Positions 2,498 through 42,396 of a DNA stretch of 44,240 nucleotides are shown here, in pieces. A program made the position numbers and the translations under genes. The notes below the pieces were generated by a model, which saw nothing but the letters and a program-made list of their open reading frames with translations, was not told the DNA's origin and did not search any database. The first letter of the stretch is position 1. Each line of letters starts with the position of its first letter. The stretch comes from Escherichia phage vB_EcoS_SCS92, in the sequence record ON548432.1, one strand, 5' to 3'.

Positions 2498-3199
2498 TTA
2501 TTTCCTCAGGGCTTTAAGTTGCCGTTCAAATTCGGCAGGGTTCGATTTATACAGGGCTAAACGCTCTGCTTCACTCATGTCTTTAAACGCTGGTGCGGCC
2601 CCGCCGCCTTTGCTACCGGAAGCCCCGCCGCCGGAAGCTGCATTTGCTTTAATCAAATGCGAAAACGCTTTGTGCTCTCGCAGGTATTTGCGGAACTGTT
2701 CCGGGTCAGTCGTGATTACGTTACCGTCTGCGCCGACAAACTTAGTAACCACATCATCACCTTCGAACTCAGTCTTAACGAACGGCGCAAGGATGTCCAC
2801 TGCTTCCGGGGTAATAAAGTCACCCGCGAAAGAGCCTAGCACCGCTTTACGTTCGCTGCCGAGGATGCGCTCTGCCATTTTGGAGATGCGGCCATCTTTC
2901 TCGGCTAACACCGGGTCATACTGGCTACGAATCGTCTTTTCAAACTCGTCCATCTTACCGGCGGCCTTTAACGCCTCCTGGTGCGCACGCTGCCGTTCTT
3001 CTTCGGCCTCTTTTGCTTTACGGGCGGCTTCTTTCTTCTCCGCCAGCAATGCTTCCTGATTGGCCTTAAGCCCGGCAACTTCTTTCTCAATCAGCGCCTG
3101 AACTTCTTCAGCGGTGAACATTTTAGGAGCGTCACCGCCACCAGCTTTATCTTCTGCTCCAGCTTCTTCCTGGAACGGATAACGTAAAAAACGATTCAT
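2498..3199 (-). CDS. scaffolding protein
   Basis: Charged, helical, coiled-coil-like sequence (EEVQALIEKEVAGLKANQEALLAEKKEAARKAKEAEEERQRAHQEALKAAGK) immediately upstream of the capsid gene. Likely ATG at 3199 (MNRFLRYP); the track extends to 3253. Confidence 0.55.
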   Translation of the reverse strand: MNRFLRYPFQEEAGAEDKAGGGDAPKMFTAEEVQALIEKEVAGLKANQEALLAEKKEAARKAKEAEEERQRAHQEALKAAGKMDEFEKTIRSQYDPVLAEKDGRISKMAERILGSERKAVLGSFAGDFITPEAVDILAPFVKTEFEGDDVVTKFVGADGNVITTDPEQFRKYLREHKAFSHLIKANAASGGGASGSKGGGAAPAFKDMSEAERLALYKSNPAEFERQLKALRK

Positions 3200-3281: not shown

Positions 3282-3545
3282 CTATTCCAGAATATTCCTC
3301 ACGTAATCCTGCAACATGAACACTTTCAGTCTCAGTTGCCGTACGCATTCGGCGTTCTGAACGTCGATAGCTAAATCCTCGTCCGCGTCACTACTTGGTG
3401 GCGCCAGCTTGCACGGCGGCTGCATCATCGTCGTATCCGGGGATGGAATTGGCGTTGGCGACGGCGCGGGACTTGAGCTGCACGCGCTCAGGGTCAAAAG
3501 TGCACACGCTGCGACCTGGCGTTTTAATGTATTTAACGACTTCAC
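3282..3545 (-). CDS. o-spanin (Rz1-like outer-membrane lipoprotein)
   Basis: 87 aa. Signal peptide with lipobox-like LTLSAC, proline-rich mature part. Overlaps the 3' part of the i-spanin gene in another frame. Confidence 0.5.
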   Translation of the reverse strand: MKSLNTLKRQVAACALLTLSACSSSPAPSPTPIPSPDTTMMQPPCKLAPPSSDADEDLAIDVQNAECVRQLRLKVFMLQDYVRNILE

Positions 3546-3777
3546 GGGTAATCACCTCTGATTTCGTCTTGCCTTCGTTGTCAGCGGCGGCGGCCTTTGA
3601 TTCGTCCTGCTGCTGCCGTTGTGTTTTCTTCGCTAACTCAGCCTGCGCTTTCTGCTGTTGCTGCGAAACGAGATTCGCCCGGCCTTCGTTCCAGCCGCTG
3701 CGATACTGGTAGATGCCGTGGGCGTAAGCCAGGATGATGAAACATGCTCCTGCTACGACAGTTGCTTTAAGATTCAT
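3391..3777 (-). CDS. i-spanin (Rz-like)
   Basis: 128 aa. N-terminal transmembrane segment (VVAGACFIILAYAHGIY) followed by a Gln/Ala/Lys-rich coiled coil. AAAGGGGAAAC precedes the ATG. Confidence 0.55.
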   Translation of the reverse strand: MNLKATVVAGACFIILAYAHGIYQYRSGWNEGRANLVSQQQQKAQAELAKKTQRQQQDESKAAAADNEGKTKSEVITREVVKYIKTPGRSVCTFDPERVQLKSRAVANANSIPGYDDDAAAVQAGATK

Positions 3778-11539: not shown

Positions 11540-12043
11540 TCAACCTTTCACCGCGCGCCCGATAGCCTCTGCCTCTTGCCACGGTTTACCGTCGAACAGC
11601 GCCAGACGACCGGCAGTACGGCGGCGCAGACCAAGTAACGGTCTGCCGTTCTGGTTGATGAACAGTGTCAGCTTAGCCCGCAGCGTCTCGATATCACCAG
11701 AACGCAGTGCCTTACCTGTACCAGTAGCAGCCGCAATCACGCCGGCGCCAGCGTTATATACCAGGTCACACACCGCATCGAACTGAGCCTGTGTTAATGA
11801 ATGGTGTGCTGCTGCGTCAACCGCAGCTACGGCCTTAGCCATGTCGCGATTCAGTAACAGGAGTCCTTGCCCCGGGGTGATGGTCTGCCCAGCCTTAACG
11901 TCTGGCCCGTAGTGACCGTAGCCGATAGTCAGGTACTTCTCGTTCGGCGTAGCACGATACGCAGTACCTCGGAACCCCTCAAACGCAGCGGTGAAATGCA
12001 ACCCATTATCTGAAATGTTTCGAGACACGCTTATGTCCCCCAT
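11540..12043 (-). CDS. endolysin, GH24 lysozyme-like
   Basis: 167 aa. FEGFRGTAYRATPNEKYLTIGYGH matches the catalytic region of T4/lambda-type lysozymes. Sits downstream of the holin genes. Confidence 0.7.
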   Translation of the reverse strand: MGDISVSRNISDNGLHFTAAFEGFRGTAYRATPNEKYLTIGYGHYGPDVKAGQTITPGQGLLLLNRDMAKAVAAVDAAAHHSLTQAQFDAVCDLVYNAGAGVIAAATGTGKALRSGDIETLRAKLTLFINQNGRPLLGLRRRTAGRLALFDGKPWQEAEAIGRAVKG

Positions 12044-28681: not shown

Positions 28682-30862
28682 TTAATCGCAAAGTAAGGAT
28701 TTGGTGAAGTTTGGCACCCACGGCATCCTGTCAGAAATTACTAAATCTCTGATTAATATGCCGCAGTCTGCAGATGCGCCGCTATAGGTAACTTGGATAT
28801 TAAAACTAGTTGCCTGGCTTCTGGCAAGACTGATGGCTGCAAAATAATCGTTACCGGTCTGTGGTGATATAGTCACATATGAGGTTCCTAGTCCTATTTT
28901 TACGACAGTATTTGTCCCATAACTGGTAAATTGATGACGGAAAAGAACATAAACGCGGTCGTGATTGTTGAAAACCGCGTTTGTAGTTGTGATTGGTATT
29001 GTGAATGTTTTTGTGGTAGCGTCTCGTGCAAAGGTAACCTGTAGATTATCACCAGAAGTAGCCATAGTTACGCCTGATTCCTGCGGGTAAGCAGAACCGT
29101 TATTGGCGTTAAGCGCAGACCTTTTAAAAAGAACAAATGGTTTTGAAGACATTTGTTCACTCTCCCAGGTACTTGTCCCACTATCGTCCCAAAAAAGACC
29201 CTTAAAATAATACATTACACTGGATGACACGGTCCAACCGGCTAAATCAAACATGCTCCCGGTTGCATCTGTTAAGTCACAGTTAATAAATCTATTAAAT
29301 CTGTTGGTGGAGTTCTGGTATACGCAACAAGGTGTCGTTGTTCCTGTTGTGATATTAGGGTCCGCAAATGATACTGAGTTGAATGTTACGTATTCGCACC
29401 CATCCATGATAATGCCGCCGCGAGTCACAGCGCCGGAGCGTTGGATATTAGTAAATGTACTGTTACGCATATTCGCAAGAAGGGCAAAAGTACAGTCCGC
29501 TGTTAATGACCCATCGGCATTGTGGGCTTCTCCGTGGAAATCTGTAAAATGAATATCGCGGAAGCCCTTGACATCAGATGCACTATTTCCGGCTAGGCTT
29601 TCTGAATAGATGGCGTATGTTGCGCGACTCGCCCATCCTACACGGTCGAATGTACATGCAAAAATCTGTCGGTCTACATGGCAGGAGAACCTGATACTAG
29701 GGTTGCCAGATGTCGCCCATGAAGGGTTGTTGTCGATTGTGCTGAAAAACATACAATCCCGGAATGACAGGCCTGTTAAATTTCCACGGTCGATATCTGT
29801 ATTAGTCCTGAGCACAAGCCCACCGCCTAATGTCCATACGTGGCTTAATTCCAGGTTCTCCACGTCTCCAGATGTTGCGTTTTTAGGGTGGATAACAACA
29901 GCAGCATCGAAGGTTCCAGATACAGATATCCGACGGACGACGGAATTACGGCAGCCGCCAATGTGCAGCCCAACCACATTCGGCTGGGAACCATCTGCGT
30001 TTATCTGGAAACCTTCAATATAAAACGGGTCTTGTCCTGTGTTATCAATAGCGACTATAGCGGGTCCTGTGGAACCGGCAATTACGTTAGTGCCAGTAAA
30101 GTCAGGGAGAGCCATAAAGTATGTTTCTGGGTAGACCCCAACAATACGCGTCCTTTTTGGAAGGTTAAGAGTAGAATCAAGCCAAAAGAACCCAGCCGGG
30201 AAACGTAAAGTAACCCCAGTACCGATATTCTCGCTAGTTGCTGCCGCTAAAGCCTGCTCAATGTATGTCCTTACGCTTCCTAGTGCTTTTGACGCGTTAA
30301 CATCGTTTAGAGCTGCGATCACGTTAGCTGGAAGGTAGTCAAGTATGTTTATCTCTGTTTTTGCTGCTTGAGTCTTGCGGTAGTCAAACTCTGCCTGTAC
30401 GGTCCTGCCGGATGTTGTCCCAACTAACCCTGCGCCAGTGCTTAGGGCCAAATCACGGCGCAATGCAGCTTCACTAACGGCAACCCATGCGGTCTGGCCT
30501 ACTCCGCCCGTAGACGCCGGGGTTGAAGATGCCGGGATGGTTTTTGGCAGAGCACCCTTCCATGCATAATAGTTGCCGTCGCCTGATGGCCCTGGCCACA
30601 ACACCGCCAGGTCAGCGTCGTTAACGCCCAAAGTCCCACCTGTTTCGAATGTGAAAGACGCAGGTCTGAAACCCGCGTCGCGCAACACGGCAGGAAGCGT
30701 CTTCTGCGCCTGCCCGGTAACCTGATTTGTTGCGTAATCAATGTCTGCACCCGTAGCTACACCGCCGGATTTGCCAGTGATAACCTCGGCCTCGAAAATC
30801 TGATGTTTCTTGGCGGTCTGTAAATCCGCCAGGCTTAAAACGTCACCGCATCCGCTTGACAT
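28682..30862 (-). CDS. tailspike / receptor-binding depolymerase (beta-helix type)
   Basis: 726 aa, last gene of the tail module. N-terminal region (GNYYAWKGALPKTIPASSTPASTGGVGQTAWVAVSEAALRRDL) resembles the conserved N-terminal anchor of other phage tailspikes such as K1F endosialidase; the rest is Asn/Gly/Thr/Ser-rich and repetitive. Confidence 0.7.
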   Translation of the reverse strand: MSSGCGDVLSLADLQTAKKHQIFEAEVITGKSGGVATGADIDYATNQVTGQAQKTLPAVLRDAGFRPASFTFETGGTLGVNDADLAVLWPGPSGDGNYYAWKGALPKTIPASSTPASTGGVGQTAWVAVSEAALRRDLALSTGAGLVGTTSGRTVQAEFDYRKTQAAKTEINILDYLPANVIAALNDVNASKALGSVRTYIEQALAAATSENIGTGVTLRFPAGFFWLDSTLNLPKRTRIVGVYPETYFMALPDFTGTNVIAGSTGPAIVAIDNTGQDPFYIEGFQINADGSQPNVVGLHIGGCRNSVVRRISVSGTFDAAVVIHPKNATSGDVENLELSHVWTLGGGLVLRTNTDIDRGNLTGLSFRDCMFFSTIDNNPSWATSGNPSIRFSCHVDRQIFACTFDRVGWASRATYAIYSESLAGNSASDVKGFRDIHFTDFHGEAHNADGSLTADCTFALLANMRNSTFTNIQRSGAVTRGGIIMDGCEYVTFNSVSFADPNITTGTTTPCCVYQNSTNRFNRFINCDLTDATGSMFDLAGWTVSSSVMYYFKGLFWDDSGTSTWESEQMSSKPFVLFKRSALNANNGSAYPQESGVTMATSGDNLQVTFARDATTKTFTIPITTTNAVFNNHDRVYVLFRHQFTSYGTNTVVKIGLGTSYVTISPQTGNDYFAAISLARSQATSFNIQVTYSGASADCGILIRDLVISDRMPWVPNFTKSLLCD

Positions 30863-34313: not shown

Positions 34314-35714
34314 TTAACCGTCCACATTAAAATCAATACGAGTGATGTATTTACTACCCCACGCCGAATCCGCTTGTGGTATGGAGGCGTAACCGTCAAC
34401 AGCCTGAACGTTTATCACGGAGCCGTCGGAGTAGGTAATGTCAATGCTTGTCGCGCCATTCATGGTTACTTTTGCTGATGCCGTTGGACGAGTTACCGGT
34501 GACTCCTCGGTCACTATCGGGGAGGAGGCAAACTCTGAAGGCTCCATCTGGATTAGGGCTATAATGAACCCACTGACATCATCCCCTGTGAAGGTGAGGG
34601 AGTTAGACGGAGACAACATGTTTATCTGCGAATAAATCAATCCGCCGGAGTCGTTAGTGTCCGCTGACATTGAAACGTGATACCACCCACCACCAAGATT
34701 GCTTACGAACGACCTTGAGGTGTCGCCTGATATCAAATAGCCGGAGGCTAAGTCAACATAGGCATACTGGAAATTATCTAAAGCGGCTCGGTTGCCGATG
34801 GCTACCGCTGCCGACTGGTACTCATCTGCTTTTATAATAGCACTAATAGAGTATCTTGTTTCTTGTTCTGGGGCCTCTGCCTTGTTTATATAATGGTTAC
34901 CTGATACCGACGTTGCGGTTAATTTAGCAGCATAAGTTTCTTGGAATAACGCCAAAGAACTCGCCGTGGTTGTTGTTCTGGTACGTGAAAATGATGTAGA
35001 TAGTAAGTTGTTAGAATGTTCTACCACATTGGTAGCAGCCTTTTCCGGCGGCACACGCCCAACTGCAGTTCCGTCAATAAACGTAAGAGGCCATTCATTA
35101 GTGGCGGACTGCACAAGATTGCCGTTGCGGTTGATGTAATAAACCTGCGGCCCTTCATACACAATGCGGCTATCAAGAGTCGACGCCAGAAGGTTAATCG
35201 GCGGATACCCGGCAGGGCCTTCATTACTCCAGATTCGTGGAAACGTTGATTGCGCGGTTCCGTAGGCTTTAAGGAAACACCCCAGCCCGTCACCATAGCA
35301 ACCATACAAATCCGGCAGATTATTGACAAGACACTGGTTCTCGAGGTCCTGGAACGGGGATTTCTCGGCGGTTGCCGTGAAAGTAATCGTCCAGTTAATG
35401 CCGTCTTCGGTGGACTCCGCGATGGTGGACGTGATGGTTACCTGATAATCTTCAATACCCATGCCGAAGTCATGCGCCATCCAGAAACTTGACGCACCGC
35501 CGTCCACTTTCTCAAGGAACGACAGAAACGCCTGTCGCCCTAGTGCAGATGTAATCAGGGTTACGCTTATTGGGAACACATCATAATACGTGTCACGGCC
35601 CTGGCGCACTCCACCGCCGGCTAAATCTACACTCCAGACGTTGTTGCGTCTGGTCATTGAGTAGCCTTTCGATACCACCGGCTTAAGGCTACGTGGGAAA
35701 TATAAGTCGCTCAT
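34314..35714 (-). CDS. minor tail / distal tail protein
   Basis: 466 aa; ATGA overlap with the tape measure stop. Confidence 0.5.
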   Translation of the reverse strand: MSDLYFPRSLKPVVSKGYSMTRRNNVWSVDLAGGGVRQGRDTYYDVFPISVTLITSALGRQAFLSFLEKVDGGASSFWMAHDFGMGIEDYQVTITSTIAESTEDGINWTITFTATAEKSPFQDLENQCLVNNLPDLYGCYGDGLGCFLKAYGTAQSTFPRIWSNEGPAGYPPINLLASTLDSRIVYEGPQVYYINRNGNLVQSATNEWPLTFIDGTAVGRVPPEKAATNVVEHSNNLLSTSFSRTRTTTTASSLALFQETYAAKLTATSVSGNHYINKAEAPEQETRYSISAIIKADEYQSAAVAIGNRAALDNFQYAYVDLASGYLISGDTSRSFVSNLGGGWYHVSMSADTNDSGGLIYSQINMLSPSNSLTFTGDDVSGFIIALIQMEPSEFASSPIVTEESPVTRPTASAKVTMNGATSIDITYSDGSVINVQAVDGYASIPQADSAWGSKYITRIDFNVDG

Positions 35715-38026
35715 TATTTAAACCCCGGCGCATTTCTTGTGGCCTTGCGGGCCTTGCTAATCTTACTGTTACTGTTCTGCAAAGAGGCAGCCACTTGCTC
35801 CTCGATGATGATACGCAAACGGCCTTCATCATCTTGCTCAGTGGATACGTTGCCGATTTGAGAACTCGTGTTGTTTACGATAGTAACATTAGACGGTCCG
35901 GAAGAAGACCCGTTTTGCCCCATAATTTCTTTCATCTGCTGTGCGGTGCGTACACGTGACGCACCAGCGGGCATGATAACTTCTGGTTTACCGCGTTCGG
36001 CGATGGTTGAAGCCTGCCCCGCGGATAACTGTCCGCCCTGTTCACGTGCGGACCTGATAGCGGAAATCTGCGCCATACCCGCCCCAACGGCAGCAGCGGC
36101 AGCTACAGGAGCCAGGAACGGGCCAACTACAGGGATAGCCGCTGTTGACTTATACGCCTCAATAGCCGCGGTGTACGTGGCTATAGTGGCCTGCACGATA
36201 GCGAATGCCTTGTACGCGCCAGAAGCCTCGCCCAAAGCCGAACCGATGTTTGAGGCCATGTTACCGAAGGCCGTTGCCGTTGCGTCGGCACGCTTCGTGG
36301 CGTACTGCTCATTGATGGCGTTAAGCGCCGCCTGGTACTGCTTCTCACTAATAAGCCCCTGCTCACGGTACTTATCCGCTACCTTCAGTTTCTGCTGTTC
36401 CTGGATGTCGAGAAGCTCAAGCTCAGTAGCGTTCTGACCCATAATCTGTGCCATGAAGTCCTCGCCTTTCTGCTGCTTTTCCTGCTGCTCTTTTCTTTTC
36501 TTATCCAGTTCTTCCTGTCTGGCCTGCTCGGCTGTGAGCATAATTTGAGTTTTGGCGTTTTCATACTGCTGCTGGCTTATCGTTCCGGCGCGGTTGAACT
36601 CCTCCAGTTTCGCCAGTTTCTGTTCTTCCGCAGCGGTAATGCGCGAAATCTCATCTCCGGTTGTGCGGTCGACAGTAGCCAGGAAATCTTCCGCCGCTTT
36701 TTTCTGTCGTTCAGCCGCCGTTTCTTCGCGTTTGGCTTGTGCCGCCAGCCGTTTCTCGTTCGATTTAGCCTCGCGGTCTGCCTTCTCTTTCTCGGTCTTG
36801 TCAATGCGGGCGATGTCTTGCTGAGCTTCCGTGTCGCGAGCGGCATTATACGCGGCTATCTGTTCTTTGGTGACAGCTTCACGTTTAGCGAACGCCTGTT
36901 TATCGAGTTCAGCTTGCGCCCGGATGCGCTCACGGTCGCTTAAGATGGCAATTTGCTGGTTTTTGACGATGGCGTCGTTCTGTTCCTGGAATCTCTGCGT
37001 GGTTGAGTTGACGTTACGGCCGAGATTCTTTTGGGCCTCCGCCGCCGCGTTTGCCGACTTCTCCGCGTTCTCCAGTGCCGTGGCGTTCTTGTTGGCATTG
37101 TCGGTCAGGCGGATAAGCTCCGGGTTCAGCTGTTTTGTGTTACCCAGCCAGTCGGTAAACACATCGGCGATGCGGCGGGCATTCTCCGCGGTTGGTTCTT
37201 TGTTAAACGCACTCTGCGCCGCTATCATCTCCAGCGCCTGGTCACGGTTAACCCCGAACTTACTGCTAAGCTCTGCGATATTCTGCGCCAGCATGTTGAC
37301 GCCTACGATGTTACCCTCGTAAGTGCCGCCGAGTTTTTCTAATGTGTCGCCTACATCTGCACCCTTAGACACCAGCGCATCATACTGGCTAATAGCTGAT
37401 GCTGTGGAGGCTTTCCATGTTTCCCATGATTCCGCGTCCTCACGAACAGCTTTAGCTGTTTGCTGTGCGATAAGGTCAGCGTTAGCCTTAGCCAAAGCGA
37501 GCTGAGTCTCCGCCGCTTCTCTGCTGATTTGGGTAAGCTGGATAAGGCCGTCTGTCAGTTCGAGGGAGCCAGATGCCGTTTGTTGGAAAGTATCTTTTAA
37601 CTGTTTCTGTGCGGCTTCGAGGTCTTTTGAACTGCCTTCTGCTTCGGTTAGCGATTTATACAGGACGCCACCAACAGCTGATGCAAGAGCAATTACAGCC
37701 CCAAGCACCGCACCACCGGGGCCGAAAGCACCCGCAAGCTGCGAACCTTGCTGTCCTATCGCGACGAATGCGGACGTACCGGATTGCAACTGGACAACCA
37801 TGTCCTGCACCTGGAAGCCTACCTGCCCAGCGGCATTACGGAACTTAGCGAAACCGTCAGAGGCGGCTTTAGACGTAGCGGAGTTTACTTTATTAACATC
37901 CGGAGTCAGCTTGTTTACTGCGGTATCCGCACGGTCTGCAGACGACGCCATAGCGTCAAGCTGTTTGGCAGCTACGTCAGCACCTTCTGTTTTTACTCTG
38001 GCAATTAGGGAAGCCGTATCAGCCAT
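35714..38026 (-). CDS. tail tape measure protein
   Basis: About 770 aa, helical and Ala/Gln/Lys/Glu-rich, downstream of the G/GT chaperones. Likely ATG at 38026 (MADTASL) with a GAGGG Shine-Dalgarno. Confidence 0.8.
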   Translation of the reverse strand: MADTASLIARVKTEGADVAAKQLDAMASSADRADTAVNKLTPDVNKVNSATSKAASDGFAKFRNAAGQVGFQVQDMVVQLQSGTSAFVAIGQQGSQLAGAFGPGGAVLGAVIALASAVGGVLYKSLTEAEGSSKDLEAAQKQLKDTFQQTASGSLELTDGLIQLTQISREAAETQLALAKANADLIAQQTAKAVREDAESWETWKASTASAISQYDALVSKGADVGDTLEKLGGTYEGNIVGVNMLAQNIAELSSKFGVNRDQALEMIAAQSAFNKEPTAENARRIADVFTDWLGNTKQLNPELIRLTDNANKNATALENAEKSANAAAEAQKNLGRNVNSTTQRFQEQNDAIVKNQQIAILSDRERIRAQAELDKQAFAKREAVTKEQIAAYNAARDTEAQQDIARIDKTEKEKADREAKSNEKRLAAQAKREETAAERQKKAAEDFLATVDRTTGDEISRITAAEEQKLAKLEEFNRAGTISQQQYENAKTQIMLTAEQARQEELDKKRKEQQEKQQKGEDFMAQIMGQNATELELLDIQEQQKLKVADKYREQGLISEKQYQAALNAINEQYATKRADATATAFGNMASNIGSALGEASGAYKAFAIVQATIATYTAAIEAYKSTAAIPVVGPFLAPVAAAAAVGAGMAQISAIRSAREQGGQLSAGQASTIAERGKPEVIMPAGASRVRTAQQMKEIMGQNGSSSGPSNVTIVNNTSSQIGNVSTEQDDEGRLRIIIEEQVAASLQNSNSKISKARKATRNAPGFK

Positions 38027-38390
38027 CTTCTCTGCCCTCAAATATTCCGTCTAAGCCCATGATAACCTCGGCTTCGAACAAACTTATGCCGTAACCGGCG
38101 ACATCACGAAACGCTACCAAATCTTGCCATTTGAGCGCATCGCGCGGGATTATAACGATAGTATCATCTGTTTCGCGCTGTAGGAATTTAATGGCACGGT
38201 ATTTCTCGAACACGTCGATAAGAGAAACGGGGCATTCCGGCCCCGTCGCTTCTTTCATCTGCGGTTCTTTAATCACGCCCATTGCAATCAAAGCCGCCTG
38301 GTGGCCCGCCGCGATGTCGTCGAATTGCTTACGTTTGTGGCGGTCGACAAAGCACCATTGCGCAAATTCATACAGCGCTTTTACTTTTCC
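38019..38390 (-). CDS. tail assembly chaperone, -1 frameshift extension (T part of G/GT)
   Basis: The -1 frame stays open from the G stop to 38019. Slippery heptamer GGAAAAG lies immediately before the G stop codon (minus strand, 38384-38390). Confidence 0.4.
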   Translation of the reverse strand, partial: GKVKALYEFAQWCFVDRHKRKQFDDIAAGHQAALIAMGVIKEPQMKEATGPECPVSLIDVFEKYRAIKFLQRETDDTIVIIPRDALKWQDLVAFRDVAGYGISLFEAEVIMGLDGIFEGREDG

Positions 38391-38797
38391 GAGAGTTTCT
38401 CACGGCTATCGGTGTGATGCTTAACTACGGCCTCTGCCAACCCACTGTACTGGTCGAACAGGTTAGCAAGCGCCTCTTTGCTGAATGGTTCGTCGAATGA
38501 CCAACCGGTGACGATTTCCACGGCAAGCTGCTTGTTCAGGTCCATCACCCGCCAGCCCTTCTCATCATTATAGCGCGCCCAGTTATTCAGCGCCTCGCAC
38601 TCTTTATCTAATGGCGCAAGTTCTTCCGTAAGGCGTCGAATTGCCGTTGTGTAGGCGCGGCCCGCACGAACACCAGCGTCACAATCGGGGCCAATGACCT
38701 GTAGCCATTCACCAGAGTCTTTACCACTCGGCAGAAGGATAGGCATTTTAGTGCCAGCAGCATGGCGGTCCGCAAAATAAAAATCAGAAAGTTTCAT
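38381..38797 (-). CDS. tail assembly chaperone (lambda G-like)
   Basis: 138 aa, immediately upstream of the tape measure gene, with a slippery site at its 3' end. Confidence 0.5.
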   Translation of the reverse strand: MKLSDFYFADRHAAGTKMPILLPSGKDSGEWLQVIGPDCDAGVRAGRAYTTAIRRLTEELAPLDKECEALNNWARYNDEKGWRVMDLNKQLAVEIVTGWSFDEPFSKEALANLFDQYSGLAEAVVKHHTDSREKLSEK

Positions 38798-38904
38798 TCT
38801 TTAATCCTTTGGTTAAGAGGTTACTGGTTAAGGTTGACGCGCCAGACGGGAACCACCCGCTTTTCGTGTGCGACACTAGGCGCAAAATTATTCTAGCACA
38901 CTAC

Positions 38905-38933
38905 TTGCACACCCCAATATAATAGGGTACTAT
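38905..38933 (+). promoter_or_regulatory. sigma70-like promoter (TTGCAC-N17-TACTAT class) with AATAG-N4-CTATT palindrome, driving the opposite-strand island
   Basis: CTTGCACaccccaatataatagggTACTAT, 28 bp upstream of the ATG at 38962. Confidence 0.55.
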
Positions 38934-38961
38934 TCACCAGTAACTTACTGAGGGTATAATT

Positions 38962-39288
38962 ATGCGTAAATTAGTATTAGCTCTGGGGTTTATGTCTTTT
39001 GCTACTTTTGGAGCCCCGTGCGAACAGGTATTTAGTGAATCCGTTCTTATGACTTCTGGTGTGCTTGATAAAGCCGACCTTACTATTGTAAAGGCATTTA
39101 AAGACTCTACAGTTCGCGAGTGTGAGGCTGCCGTAGTGGTTGGTAAATCGGGCCTGCCTCCGCAAGCCGTAACATACTCGGTAATACGTTCTGTAGAGAA
39201 AAACGGAGACGCGTTTTACAGCCTACTGACAGCCACCCGCCTGCAAATGGTGATGACCGGGTGGGCGATAGGCGCGGAAAGTAAATAG
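38962..39288 (+). CDS. small secreted/periplasmic protein with signal peptide (candidate superinfection-exclusion factor)
   Basis: 108 aa. N-terminus MRKLVLALGFMSFATFGAP is a signal peptide. Opposite strand to the tail genes, with its own early-type promoter. Confidence 0.5.
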   Translation: MRKLVLALGFMSFATFGAPCEQVFSESVLMTSGVLDKADLTIVKAFKDSTVRECEAAVVVGKSGLPPQAVTYSVIRSVEKNGDAFYSLLTATRLQMVMTGWAIGAESK

Positions 39289-39353
39289 TCGCCTTTATTT
39301 AAAGGAATGCACTGTGGTTAAATAGGACAAATCCTAAACACGAGGAAGTAAGC

Positions 39354-40484
39354 ATGGCCCGGAAGAAAATAACCGACGAACAGTTGCAGGAAGAATTGAA
39401 CGCCGGGATGAAGAATATCGATATCGCCCGTAAATACGGAATCTCAGACCGCGTTATTCGTATCCGTAAAGCGAAGCTGGCTAAGAAAGGTGTAGGCCAC
39501 GGGCGTGACGTTAGCCACCTTGTCCCAGACGGCTACAAGATTAAAGGGACGTCGTCCCTGGTGGACGAGTTCGGCAACACTAAGTTGCAATGGGTTAAGA
39601 CCGACGCTGATGCCGAACGTCAGGTTGAATTGATGAAAGCCGTAATAGAGGGCATGAAGTCAGAGATTACGCCCGTTGCGCCTGTTAAACCGGCACGAGC
39701 CAAACGTGACGATAAACTACTCAATCTTTACACGGTATCTGATTTCCATCTCGGTATGCTGGCATGGGCCGATGAGAGCGGCGACGACTGGGACATGAAG
39801 ATTGCAGAAGACCTGTTCTCTCGGTGGTTCGACGCGGCGTTTCAGAAAGCACCGGATGCAGGAACAGGAGTTATTAACCTGCTTGGCGACCTTGCACACT
39901 TCGATAGTCTGGACGCCGTTACCCCGGCAAGTGGTCATGTTCTCGATGCGGACACGCGCTACCAGAAACTGGTTCGCTACATGATTCGTATGGTCCGCCG
40001 TGTTGTCGATATGGCCCTTGTTAAGCATAAAAATGTTCGCTTGCTTATCGTACAAGGGAACCACGACGAAAGCGGAATGATTTGGTTAGCTGAGATGTTC
40101 AGTACGCTGTACGACAATGAGCCTCGTGTGTTCGTCGATACGTCGCCGGATGTTTACAAGATGGTGCAACACGGCAAAACGACGCTGTTCTTTACACACG
40201 GGCATAAATGCCGGTTTGAGGTGGTCGAACCCATTATGATAGCTAAGTTCAGAAAAGCATTTGGCGAAAGCGAGTACAGTTACGCACATGTCGGTCATCT
40301 CCACCATCAAAAGATTGTAGAAAGTAGGAATATGGTAGTGGAACAACATCGCACTCTCGCGGCGAAAGATGCATATGCTTCCCGCGGTGGGTGGATGTCT
40401 AAGAGGTCCGCTAATGTCATAACCTATAGTTCAGAGTTCGGGGAAGTAGGTAGGCTTTCGATCTCACCGGAGATGCTAAGATGA
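39354..40484 (+). CDS. HTH-fused metallophosphoesterase (calcineurin-like)
   Basis: 376 aa. N-terminal HTH-like region (NIDIARKYGISDRVIRIRKAKL) and C-terminal metallophosphoesterase motifs (DFHLG, LLGDLAHFD, VQGNHDE, FTHGH, HVGHLHH). Confidence 0.65.
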   Translation: MARKKITDEQLQEELNAGMKNIDIARKYGISDRVIRIRKAKLAKKGVGHGRDVSHLVPDGYKIKGTSSLVDEFGNTKLQWVKTDADAERQVELMKAVIEGMKSEITPVAPVKPARAKRDDKLLNLYTVSDFHLGMLAWADESGDDWDMKIAEDLFSRWFDAAFQKAPDAGTGVINLLGDLAHFDSLDAVTPASGHVLDADTRYQKLVRYMIRMVRRVVDMALVKHKNVRLLIVQGNHDESGMIWLAEMFSTLYDNEPRVFVDTSPDVYKMVQHGKTTLFFTHGHKCRFEVVEPIMIAKFRKAFGESEYSYAHVGHLHHQKIVESRNMVVEQHRTLAAKDAYASRGGWMSKRSANVITYSSEFGEVGRLSISPEMLR

Positions 40485-40951
40485 AGTACCTTGATGTTTC
40501 AAAACAATTTAAATACTGCCCTGATACTGGGCAGGTTACCAGGATATCTACTGGTGCTGAGGTTGGTACGGTTGGTGTAAGAGGCTATCTGTGCTGCGGT
40601 ATGGGTGGCAAAACAGTGTATGTCCACCGCATAGCATGGTGTCTTTATAATAAATGTGACTTAGACAGGAAAACTCAAATAGACCACATAAACCATAACA
40701 GGCTAGACAATAGAATAGAAAATCTACGCGCCACCGACAATACAGGGAACAGTAAAAATAAAACTATGAGAAAGATAAATAAATCCGGGGCTACAGGTGT
40801 AAGTTTCCACAAAGCCGCGGGTAAGTGGCGCGCGTTTATAAAAGTTAACTACAAACAAGTGCATTTAGGGCTTTACGACGATTTTGATGTAGCGGTTGCC
40901 GCGCGTAAAGCCGCCGAGAGTAAATACGGTTTCCATGAAAACCATGAGTAG
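40481..40951 (+). CDS. HNH homing endonuclease with AP2-type DNA-binding domain (second copy)
   Basis: IDHINHNRLDNRIENLR HNH motif and AP2-like C-terminus (SGATGVSFHKAAGKWRAFIKVNYKQVHLGLYDD...KYGFHENHE). Paralogous to the gene at 14275-14748. Confidence 0.8.
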   Translation: MKYLDVSKQFKYCPDTGQVTRISTGAEVGTVGVRGYLCCGMGGKTVYVHRIAWCLYNKCDLDRKTQIDHINHNRLDNRIENLRATDNTGNSKNKTMRKINKSGATGVSFHKAAGKWRAFIKVNYKQVHLGLYDDFDVAVAARKAAESKYGFHENHE

Positions 40952-40964
40952 GGGAGATTGATTT

Positions 40965-41195
40965 ATGACTTCAAAATACAACCGCACAATGACAAATACT
41001 CACGGCAGCACTATGACAGTAGACGTTTATGATGTGCTCCGCGCCTTCGATATACGCGACCCGGCGCTACAGCACGCATTGAAGAAGCTATTGTGCATGG
41101 GCTTGCGCGGACACAAGGACACCGGAACCGACTTAGCGGAAGCAATTGAAAGTCTGGAGAAGTTACGGGAATACCGAAGCAATATTGATGAGTAA
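40965..41195 (+). CDS. hypothetical conserved phage protein
   Basis: 76 aa. VDVYDVLRAFDIRDPALQHALKKLLCMGLRGHKD resembles a recurrent small phage protein family seen from memory. Confidence 0.45.
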   Translation: MTSKYNRTMTNTHGSTMTVDVYDVLRAFDIRDPALQHALKKLLCMGLRGHKDTGTDLAEAIESLEKLREYRSNIDE

Positions 41196-41223
41196 GAAAA
41201 AGGCCCCGAAAGGGGCCTTAGTT
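41196..41223. terminator. bidirectional rho-independent terminator
   Basis: GGCCCC-gaaa-GGGGCC stem with an A-run upstream and TTAGTTTTA downstream, between the convergent stops at 41195 and 41224. Confidence 0.55.
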
Positions 41224-42396
41224 TTATGCGTAGGTGATACGTTGAATTACGATAGACGACTGGTACTGGTTGCCGGTGGCCTGCCCCTCAATGGACTGAG
41301 TGATTGACTCGGGTCCGCCAATCTCTGGTGTTACTGCTGTAAGCTCTGCGCGTTTCAAACTGAAAGACATAGCCCCGTTTACCCCCGCCAGAATAGAGTT
41401 AATCTCTACCTGCTGTTCGTTGATAAACTTCTGAATCATCGCCATGTCGTACAGCTTGCCGGAGATGGAGAAAGTGTTAGCCGCGCGGCTACGCTCAACA
41501 AACGCTACGTTAGTGTTACCAAGTTCGAACTGCGCGGACGCGCTGTTATCGTTGGTGATAGTCAGACTGTCGCATCGCAACGGCGTAGAACCATCGAACA
41601 CGGAAACGTCAACCGAAGAAAACGGCTCATCACCAAAAGTAACAGATGAGAAGTTGGAACCGGTCGGCGGCGTGGTGAGAATCTCCTGACTGCGACCGAT
41701 GAATGGGAAGCTGCCAGTTACCATCGCGTTAACAGCCTGTTCGATGGTAAAACCAGAAACTTCCACGCCTTTGGTTAACGTGTACGCGTCAGTACCGCCG
41801 CACTGGCCTTTGTACCAGGTAAGGATAGAGAACGTCTTACACGTATTACCGGTTTCCAGCGTGTCGCCAGTTTTAGCCTTACTAGTTTTTGTCTCGGTGG
41901 TCAGGGTGTGTTGGATGCCTGCACCAGTAACAACCGTAGCCGTTACTGCAGTAACAATAAATGGTTTTGCATTATCGCCAGTTAAATCGGTAAACGCAAT
42001 CAGGTCGCCTACCCCAACTCCGTCAGTGATAAAGCTGCCGGTGGCACGTGTGAACGTCTTGCCAGCCGGTGCGACGGTAATCGATAGCCCTGACAGAGAT
42101 ACGCCAGCCTGCCACGTAGAGCCTAAAGCCCCGGCTAGCCAGTCATCCTGGCTTTTCGAGCTAAGCTCAATAGCATATTCACCGCTAACCTGCTTGTTAC
42201 CGGTGCGGATGGATGTAGTTTCGCGGCTGCCGTCCAGTTCGTTGGAGGTCAGCGTGTCACGGGTAATGGCAGGAACGCCGCCTGTGTTACGCAGTGGCGA
42301 CCATACCGGGTTAGCCGGTGTTACGCCCGGGGTAGTTTCCGCCACATAGAATTGCGCGGTATTCGCGCCCTTAAAAGGAGTTGTAGCCATATTCAC
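41224..42396 (-). CDS. major tail (tube) protein, putative
   Basis: 390 aa, Thr/Gly/Ser-rich, downstream of the neck genes and upstream of the chaperone and tape measure genes; called by position. Confidence 0.5.
   Translation of the reverse strand: MNMATTPFKGANTAQFYVAETTPGVTPANPVWSPLRNTGGVPAITRDTLTSNELDGSRETTSIRTGNKQVSGEYAIELSSKSQDDWLAGALGSTWQAGVSLSGLSITVAPAGKTFTRATGSFITDGVGVGDLIAFTDLTGDNAKPFIVTAVTATVVTGAGIQHTLTTETKTSKAKTGDTLETGNTCKTFSILTWYKGQCGGTDAYTLTKGVEVSGFTIEQAVNAMVTGSFPFIGRSQEILTTPPTGSNFSSVTFGDEPFSSVDVSVFDGSTPLRCDSLTITNDNSASAQFELGNTNVAFVERSRAANTFSISGKLYDMAMIQKFINEQQVEINSILAGVNGAMSFSLKRAELTAVTPEIGGPESITQSIEGQATGNQYQSSIVIQRITYA

Follow-up and report, generated by a model that had tools for sequence, protein, structure and literature searches.

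An exchangeable slot in the tail gene region of Escherichia phage NTEC3 encodes a predicted secreted protein, a candidate periplasmic exclusion factor

Introduction

What does a small, apparently secreted protein do among the tail genes of a siphovirus, in a place where most related phages carry a different gene? The question is raised by gp65, encoded on the + strand at positions 38962..39288 of a 44,240-bp stretch of phage DNA (ON548432.1, Escherichia phage vB_EcoS_SCS92; hereafter the window) that is identical in sequence to the complete genome of Escherichia phage NTEC3 (NC_073318 / OK539620; Kagunavirus, Guernseyvirinae). The NTEC3 record lists the product (YP_010749198) as a 'hypothetical protein', and gp65 belongs to phrog_14165, a family without functional annotation, so that membership is uninformative on function. 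A preliminary description of this DNA, made from its letters alone, had taken the gene for a candidate superinfection-exclusion factor of the kind that blocks the phage's own receptor.

Here we report that gp65 sits in a conserved exchange slot at the junction of the tail-tube and tail-chaperone genes of Guernseyvirinae-like phages. The occupants of this slot are all predicted to be envelope-targeted, and a secreted family with two cysteines, to which gp65 belongs, is the main alternative to a gene of the T4 Imm family. We favour, with somewhat less than even confidence, the view that gp65 is a periplasmic factor that excludes secondary infection by related phages after adsorption and serves as an alternative to the Imm-like protein.

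Results

gp65 and an Imm-family gene alternate in one slot

The reading frame marked in the preliminary description proved sound. It runs on the + strand from an ATG at 38962 to a TAG at 39286-39288, encodes 108 aa and follows a Shine-Dalgarno sequence, GAGGG, that can be read 7 nt before the start (38950..38954, + strand). Across 10 Kagunavirus alleles, gp65 has a ratio of nonsynonymous to synonymous substitution rates (dN/dS) of 0.06, where the exonuclease gene has 0.05 and the chaperone gene 0.01, and tblastn recovers homologues from 98 phage records (64 Salmonella, 29 Escherichia, 3 Kagunavirus and 2 Shigella). Because of this constraint and this spread, gp65 is a real gene under strong purifying selection. 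It matches the phrog_14165 profile (PHROGs v4) with an E-value of 5.4e-54, its residues 1-108 aligning to profile positions 1-109 of 109; the same profile is matched by 17 of 18 diverse superfamily members, and identity between the E. coli and Salmonella phage proteins is 59-63%. The G+C content of the gene, 48.0%, differs little from the 51.0% of the genome. The NTEC3 allele itself carries two strain-specific changes at surface positions that are otherwise conserved: Leu40 (codon 39079-39081, + strand), which is Pro in eight of nine close Kagunavirus alleles and Thr in the ninth, and Val59 (codon 39136-39138, + strand), which is Glu or Asp in all nine.

DNA alignment of NTEC3, K1G, EC3-1 and Jersey, together with blastn of locus pairs, placed gp65 in an exchangeable cassette (38938..39321, + strand) that has no counterpart in K1G-type genomes. 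Homology between the two types runs to just past the -10/start region of a shared promoter and returns just before the ribosome-binding site of the exonuclease gene. Between that same promoter and that same exonuclease gene, K1G, EC3-1 and others encode a 63-aa protein with two transmembrane (TM) segments; the K1G version, ORF21, matches Pfam PF14373 (Imm_superinfect, the T4 Imm family) with an E-value of 7.5e-13 and 48.6 bits, above the cut-off of 27.9. A comparison of the two complete genomes found no Imm homologue in NTEC3 and no gp65 family member in K1G.

The two types differ in frequency, with the Imm type in 368 phage records, of which about 350 come from Salmonella or Escherichia phages, and the gp65 type in 98, and both are present in both genera, Kagunavirus and Jerseyvirus. 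One pair of Jerseyvirus loci captures the exchange: between a gp65-type locus (L018) and an Imm-type locus (L024), 344 bp are swapped for 188 bp in a collinear backbone that is 86-94% identical, and the chaperones are 96% identical despite the different slot genes. About three quarters of related phages do without gp65, which is thus not needed for the basic infection cycle.

To see what else the slot can hold, we drew up a census of 46 IMG/VR loci found via the chaperone gene. Its occupants comprise the gp65 type, the Imm type, diverged secreted proteins with two cysteines, another protein with a signal peptide, and miniproteins with one or two TM segments; at some loci the slot is empty and the tube gene is followed directly by the chaperone gene. 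The diverged two-cysteine proteins end in G-[YF]-A-[FY]-G-E and are homologous to gp65 by hhalign (probability 96.6%, E 5.7e-10). Every occupant that could be read is predicted, from its sequence, to leave the cytoplasm or to be targeted to the envelope. In several distant relatives a gp65-like gene stands alone between tube and chaperone, which argues that it is retained on its own merits, whether or not the exonuclease operon comes with it. Two distant relatives (L005 7760-7957 and L007 4876-5073) carry a 65-aa protein between the promoter region and the gp65-like gene; as translated for L005 (MNEGFRVKKLGELK...), it has no hydrophobic segment.

gp65 carries export signals and an invariant cysteine pair

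The N-terminal signal peptide claimed in the preliminary description was assessed by rules and family-wide features, and on these terms it holds. The predicted Sec signal peptide spans residues 1-17 (38962..39012, + strand), with an M-R-K n-region, a 13-residue hydrophobic core, LVLALGFMSFATF (Kyte-Doolittle values up to 2.3 in a 9-residue window), and a (-3,-1)-compatible cleavage site at T-F-G|A-P-C. All 80 family members examined combine a Lys or Arg within the first six residues with a hydrophobic core, and 79 of the 80 have a signal-peptidase-I-compatible site no more than seven residues before the first conserved cysteine. Distant homologues show textbook A-x-A sites (LPALA|SPCEQ, SFGAKA|TTCDQ and APVAA|EEKFPCEQ).

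These family-wide features bear on the possibility that the hydrophobic stretch fails to work as a signal peptide and that gp65 acts in the cytoplasm. Such a reading can draw on the rule-based nature of the call, on the atypical c-region TFG|AP, and on the start site, where 1 nt separates a strong-looking TATAAT from the ATG and codon 11 offers another ATG in frame. We nevertheless consider it very improbable: the charged start and hydrophobic core are retained in 80/80 homologues despite sequence drift, distant members have canonical cleavage sites, two invariant cysteines fit an oxidising compartment, and the TATAAT is missing from Jersey-type relatives.

The rest of the protein looks soluble. 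After the signal peptide, no 19-residue window exceeds a Kyte-Doolittle mean of about 1.0, and hence no second membrane span is predicted; the C-terminal helix was considered as a membrane anchor and ruled out, with a 19-residue mean of 0.88 and Arg and Gln at mid-helix. Nor is gp65 a likely lipoprotein. The lipobox [LVI][ASTVI][GAS]C, whose cysteine would begin the mature protein, was found neither in NTEC3 (...TFGAP-C) nor among the 16 aligned close and Jersey-type sequences. The residue preceding the first cysteine is Pro in 15 of those 16 and Gln in the other, and across the 80 family members it is P, T, V or Q, sometimes S; the family therefore has no conserved lipobox.

Cleavage would leave a mature periplasmic protein of about 91 aa (39013..39285, + strand), with a mass of about 9.7 kDa and a pI of 5.3, which AlphaFold2 predicts to be all-helical (pLDDT 78.6; helices 19-25, 28-31, 40-63, 68-76 and 84-106, with the signal peptide disordered). 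Exactly two cysteines follow position 15 in 79 of the 80 family members, and Cys20 (codon 39019-39021), Cys54 (codon 39121-39123; both + strand) and Gly64 are the only residues invariant across the whole superfamily. The two cysteines are presumed, from this conservation, to form a disulfide in the periplasm. Comparison of the model with solved and viral structures gave no informative match.

A different reading would also fit the predicted periplasmic targeting and the strong purifying selection: gp65 might be an effector that inhibits or redirects some host envelope function (a periplasmic protease, a peptidoglycan enzyme, a step of glycan assembly, a stress sensor or an envelope-based defence) in favour of the infection itself. 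This host-directed role is the main rival to exclusion, and we rate it as a serious possibility, albeit one that is on balance improbable. The 59-63% identity between E. coli and Salmonella phage proteins suggests a conserved, possibly host, target; gp65 gives no sign of diversifying selection, and a fold with no informative match excludes nothing. What such a role leaves unexplained is why the protein that chiefly replaces it in the slot is of the Imm family and why the two are not found together, and about three quarters of related phages manage without the gene.

Database labels and profile searches were of little help with function. Scans of gp65 and its close and distant homologues against Pfam, NCBIfam and PADLOC returned no match up to E=10, and gp65 did not match PF14373 at E<=1. 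The Salmonella phage S4lw homologue is labelled 'DUF3718 domain-containing protein', a label that was not reproduced at E<=10; we treat it as unreliable because the same record names the chaperone frameshift product 'RNA polymerase III subunit', and a literature search found no paper that mentions DUF3718. Likewise, the label 'glycoprotein precursor' on the phage Henuyfy11N homologue was not reproduced and has no support. A profile search of 1.84 billion representatives returned 11 proteins at E<=0.001, mostly short members of the gp65 family (about 89-121 aa); a 744-aa repeat protein and a 4022-aa protein with no aligned stretch, also among the 11, were taken as spurious. The three matches that we looked up (P0024, P0026 and P0027) all adjoin tail-chaperone genes on phage-like contigs, and no named bacterial homologue of gp65 was found.

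Comparison with known exclusion systems

The closest parallel by position is the T4 Imm family itself, whose member K1G ORF21 (PF14373) shares with gp65 the slot, the promoter, the downstream exonuclease gene and a product predicted to leave the cytoplasm, the two being exchanged as single genes. Their products are nonetheless distinct. The Imm type has 63 aa and two membrane spans, whereas gp65 is a 108-aa precursor with a single predicted cleavable hydrophobic segment and a soluble helical domain, and the two have no sequence similarity.

A parallel by form is T4 Spackle (Sp, gene 61.3), which acts together with Imm in T4 as a second exclusion factor. Both Spackle and gp65 are small precursors (97 and 108 aa) with a Sec signal peptide and two cysteines in the mature part, and the T4 record annotates Sp as 'spackle periplasmic'. 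Judged by rule-based features and the lack of a second hydrophobic span, gp65 is likewise a small protein predicted to be soluble and Sec-exported. The likeness does not extend to sequence or fold: hhalign of the gp65 family profile against T4 Sp gave a probability of 1.9% with only the signal peptides aligned, and no Spackle chain appeared among the structural matches.

T4 physiology links immunity, spackle and lysis inhibition to one another as responses to superinfection, and gp65 is in the same size class and predicted compartment as both Spackle and the secreted antiholin RI. Might gp65 instead regulate lysis from the periplasm, as RI does, or guard against lysis from without? We consider this improbable. 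The endolysin gene (11540-12028) with its neighbouring small genes and the spanin gene (3391-3777) lie 27-35 kb from gp65, no holin with a periplasmic domain was identified in NTEC3, and gp65 is similar to neither RI nor Spackle.

Among accessory genes of tail operons, gene 15 of HK97 is a moron between the chaperone and tape-measure genes whose product blocks genome injection in a tail-dependent manner (PMC3594210). Like gp65, it is an accessory gene beside a chaperone gene, with a product that goes (for gp65, is predicted to go) to the envelope; HK97 gp15, however, is an inner-membrane protein of the YebO family from a prophage, whereas gp65 is a predicted secreted soluble protein. The gp65 gene further differs in lacking its own terminator and in heading a four-gene operon, and no integrase or repressor gene is annotated in the NTEC3 genome. 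Of the features by which morons are recognized, presence/absence and replacement are seen for gp65, the promoter is shared with the downstream operon, a terminator of its own was not found and the G+C content is that given above.

The preliminary description had drawn its analogy with T5 Llp and Cor-type proteins. Llp and Cor (the latter in T1, phi80 and N15) resemble gp65 in being small and exported and in having their genes within or close to the tail region, but both are lipoproteins, and their target is the protein receptor FhuA, which they inactivate. By this analogy gp65 would mask the phage's own receptor at the outer membrane, preventing further adsorption and the loss of progeny on debris; it is indeed predicted to be secreted, and its gene comes first in a tail-region transcription unit of the host-polymerase type. 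We regard this as scarcely credible, and the analogy of architecture is not supported. gp65 has no lipobox, with Pro before Cys20 as set out above and, across the family, a signal-peptidase-I A-x-A site two residues upstream of that position, and neither Pfam, PHROGs nor solved structures gave a sequence or fold match to Llp or Cor, an absence that the preliminary description had itself stated for sequence similarity. The receptor-binding tailspike gene (28682-30862) lies about 8 kb away. Moreover, Kagunavirus and Jerseyvirus phages are reported to depend on O-antigen or capsule glycans recognized by their enzymatic tailspikes, and not on a protein of the outer membrane that a lipoprotein might plug (PMC11990801); a soluble periplasmic protein of 9.7 kDa would be unable to mask such glycans. 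Highly similar gp65 proteins also occur in phages of different glycan specificity (K1-capsule, O16 and Salmonella phages).

gp65 heads a + strand island behind a conserved promoter

The genes gp65, gp66, gp67 and gp68 form, in that order, a + strand island inside the - strand tail operon, between gp69 and gp64/gp63. On one side, gp65 is bounded by the divergent gene for the tail assembly chaperone gp64 (38381..38797, - strand; Pfam PF08748, phrog_15027); on the other, the island ends at the tail tube protein gp69 (41224..42390, - strand; Pfam PF18906, E 7e-38). The statement in the preliminary description that gp65 lies next to tail genes is therefore right for the chaperone gene and wrong for the receptor-binding tailspike gene.

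That gp65 is the first gene behind an island promoter, as had been described, was confirmed. A sigma-70-like promoter can be read from the sequence at 38905..38933 on the + strand (-35 TTGCAC, 38905-38910; 17-nt spacer; -10 TACTAT, 38928-38933) and is a modest match to the consensus. An alignment of loci from 16 diverse relatives, representing six cassette types, nonetheless shows TTGC invariant and TAnTAT kept while the spacer varies freely, and this retention of the hexamers argues for a working sigma-70-type promoter. The top-scoring promoter of the scan, TTCACC-16-TATAAT (38933-38960), ends 1 nt before the gp65 ATG; its TATAAT is specific to close relatives and absent from Jersey-type relatives, and we set it aside as probably due to chance. 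In the region 38890-38917, upstream of the chaperone leader's RNA motif (see below) on the - strand, a conserved, extended -10-like element, TGCTAGAAT (complement of 38890-38898), stands back to back with the + strand promoter of gp65 and overlaps it; the two divergent promoters may compete.

Behind gp65, and with no terminator found between them by a terminator scan, lies gp66 in the same transcription unit (39354..40484, + strand), a metallophosphoesterase annotated as 'DNA repair exonuclease' (phrog_704). The promoter type and the DNA-metabolism genes behind it are compatible with early or middle expression. The one temporal RNA-seq study of a Kagunavirus, phage K1B4, places the Imm-type slot gene in the latest-peaking class, in a series whose 'middle' and 'late' samples were all taken after the 30-min latent period (PMC12645636); because of this sampling, these data are uninformative on early or late class.

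The distal part of the island is variable, and its end forms a second variable slot (40481..41195, + strand, in NTEC3; also L002 3119-4158 and L004 3504-4546). NTEC3 encodes there an HNH endonuclease (gp67) and the 76-aa gp68, K1G a polynucleotide kinase and an ATP-binding protein, and Jersey a gp68-like protein and an anti-repressor. gp68 is unrelated to the K1G distal-slot proteins, and its matches to longer PHROG families are confined to their C-terminal third (phrog_2452, positions 150-220 of 235). A bidirectional intrinsic terminator, AAGGCCCC-GAAA-GGGGCCTT (41200..41219), separates the island from the convergent tail-tube gene.

A mosaic chaperone/tape-measure block lies across the promoter region from the slot

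A second segment of divergence lies on the other side of the promoter region. In a mosaic block at 35714-38797 (- strand), NTEC3 and K1G share 50% identity in gp64 and 48% in its frameshift extension gp63, and residues 1-438 of the tape-measure protein have no match; tape-measure residues 439-770 are 88% identical and most flanking genes 93-99%. By blastn of locus pairs, the slot and this chaperone/tape-measure segment are separated by a conserved intergenic region. Within the Kagunavirus sample the mosaic block goes with the slot type, whereas in Jerseyvirus the slot gene changes without the chaperone. Co-evolution of slot gene, chaperone and tape measure was considered as evidence for a tape-measure target and was dropped, since Jerseyvirus phages combine 96% identical chaperones with different slot genes.

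Further along the operon, a Pfam scan of gp57-gp62 found no muralytic or peptidoglycan-hydrolase domain, and the tape-measure protein and gp61 received no domain assignment at all. gp61 (34314-35714, - strand) has 466 aa, of which only the first 162 match K1G (98%); the K1G counterpart is about 166 aa long. The remainder of gp61 is a C-terminal extension of about 300 aa on a distal tail protein, without a Pfam domain.

The leader of the chaperone gene contains a structured RNA motif of 45 nt (core 38839-38883, model match 38836-38888, - strand) in which an outer 5-bp stem encloses two small hairpins. Across 12 diverse loci, 98.6% of alignment cells are paired and compensatory changes occur in 5 of the 12 pairs. 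The motif scores 0.388 for covariation, compared with 0.124 in shuffles (0/500 reach 0.388) and at most 0.10 in slid controls, and seven G-U cells form standard pairs in the - strand RNA only. In searches with a covariance model each genome yields a single copy, which always precedes the chaperone gene, even at loci that lack the island (L028, L025 and L050), and Rfam gave no match on the whole window. In the passage from tube to chaperone expression, the motif may serve as an element of stability, processing or attenuation of the mRNA. Downstream of it, the leader (38800-38835, - strand) carries four (T)AACC repeats, and a complementary GGUU lies in the loop of the second hairpin.

One observation concerns the deposited genome. 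The NTEC3 annotation jumps from 1087-1386 to 2498-3199, and in the gap a 349-aa open reading frame (1446-2495, - strand) shares 97% identity with gp09, the major head protein of K1G. As no coding sequence is recorded at 1446-2495, the major capsid gene of NTEC3 is unannotated in the record.

Discussion

Our results locate gp65 at a position that, in most relatives, is held by a PF14373 protein, and it is this position that supports the idea of superinfection exclusion. The proposal in the preliminary description thus stands in part: an Imm-family gene in the same slot, exchange as a single gene and predicted envelope targeting all speak for exclusion, whereas the receptor-blocking form modelled on Llp and Cor is not supported.

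In the mechanism that we propose, gp65 would be the promoter-proximal gene of an operon transcribed by the host RNA polymerase and inserted between the tail-tube and tail-chaperone genes. Sec would export its product, signal peptidase I would cleave it at about G17|A18, and Cys20 and Cys54 would probably be oxidised to a disulfide; what remains in the infected cell's periplasm would be a soluble helical protein of about 9.7 kDa. Its role would most plausibly be to protect the cell from related phages at a step after adsorption, by binding a target that crosses the periplasm in DNA delivery, such as ejected tail-tip or tape-measure proteins, or a host factor that these need. gp65 would thereby be a functional alternative to the T4-Imm-like membrane protein of the same slot, and it would follow the logic of T4 Spackle or P1 Sim, which exclude from the periplasm, and not that of a receptor plug such as Llp or Cor. 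HK97 gene 15 offers a precedent for an exclusion gene at such a place in the tail operon, and T4 Spackle one for a soluble exclusion factor that acts beside Imm.

Several considerations weigh against this proposal. The argument for exclusion is positional, and hot spots can hold unrelated accessory genes; the PF14373 label on the alternative gene, too, denotes in siphoviruses a homology to T4 Imm and a putative function. The signal peptide was judged by rules, and TFG|AP is less canonical than the sites of distant homologues. In sequence and in fold, gp65 resembles neither Spackle nor any solved protein, Pfam reveals no peptidoglycan-hydrolase domain in the NTEC3 tail proteins that could serve as a Spackle-like target, and its dN/dS bears no sign of an arms race. 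The early expression given in the preliminary description, finally, is no more than a possibility, on which the K1B4 RNA-seq is uninformative.

A bolder form of the proposal, which we put forward as speculative and doubtful in its full extent, would make phrog_14165 a new periplasmic, disulfide-bonded, helical exclusion family of the Guernseyvirinae that captures ejected tape-measure or tip proteins and blocks genome delivery of related siphoviruses, with the tube/chaperone slot as a dedicated, recombination-prone 'exclusion locus'. To our knowledge, very few soluble periplasmic exclusion factors are understood (T4 Spackle, P1 Sim), and a small, easily expressed family with a natural 'allelic' partner would offer a clean system for studying which stage of siphovirus DNA delivery can be blocked in the periplasm.

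Kagunavirus and Jerseyvirus are genera whose phages are widely isolated as agents against E. coli and Salmonella, in therapy and in biocontrol. If this bolder form is true, the slot occupants (Imm-like, secreted two-cysteine and mini-membrane proteins) would define exclusion groups among the phages of therapy cocktails, and if the slot gene decides entry into infected cells, gp65-type and Imm-type phages would fall into different groups. Such exclusion groups would bear on cocktail design and on recombination between co-infecting phages.

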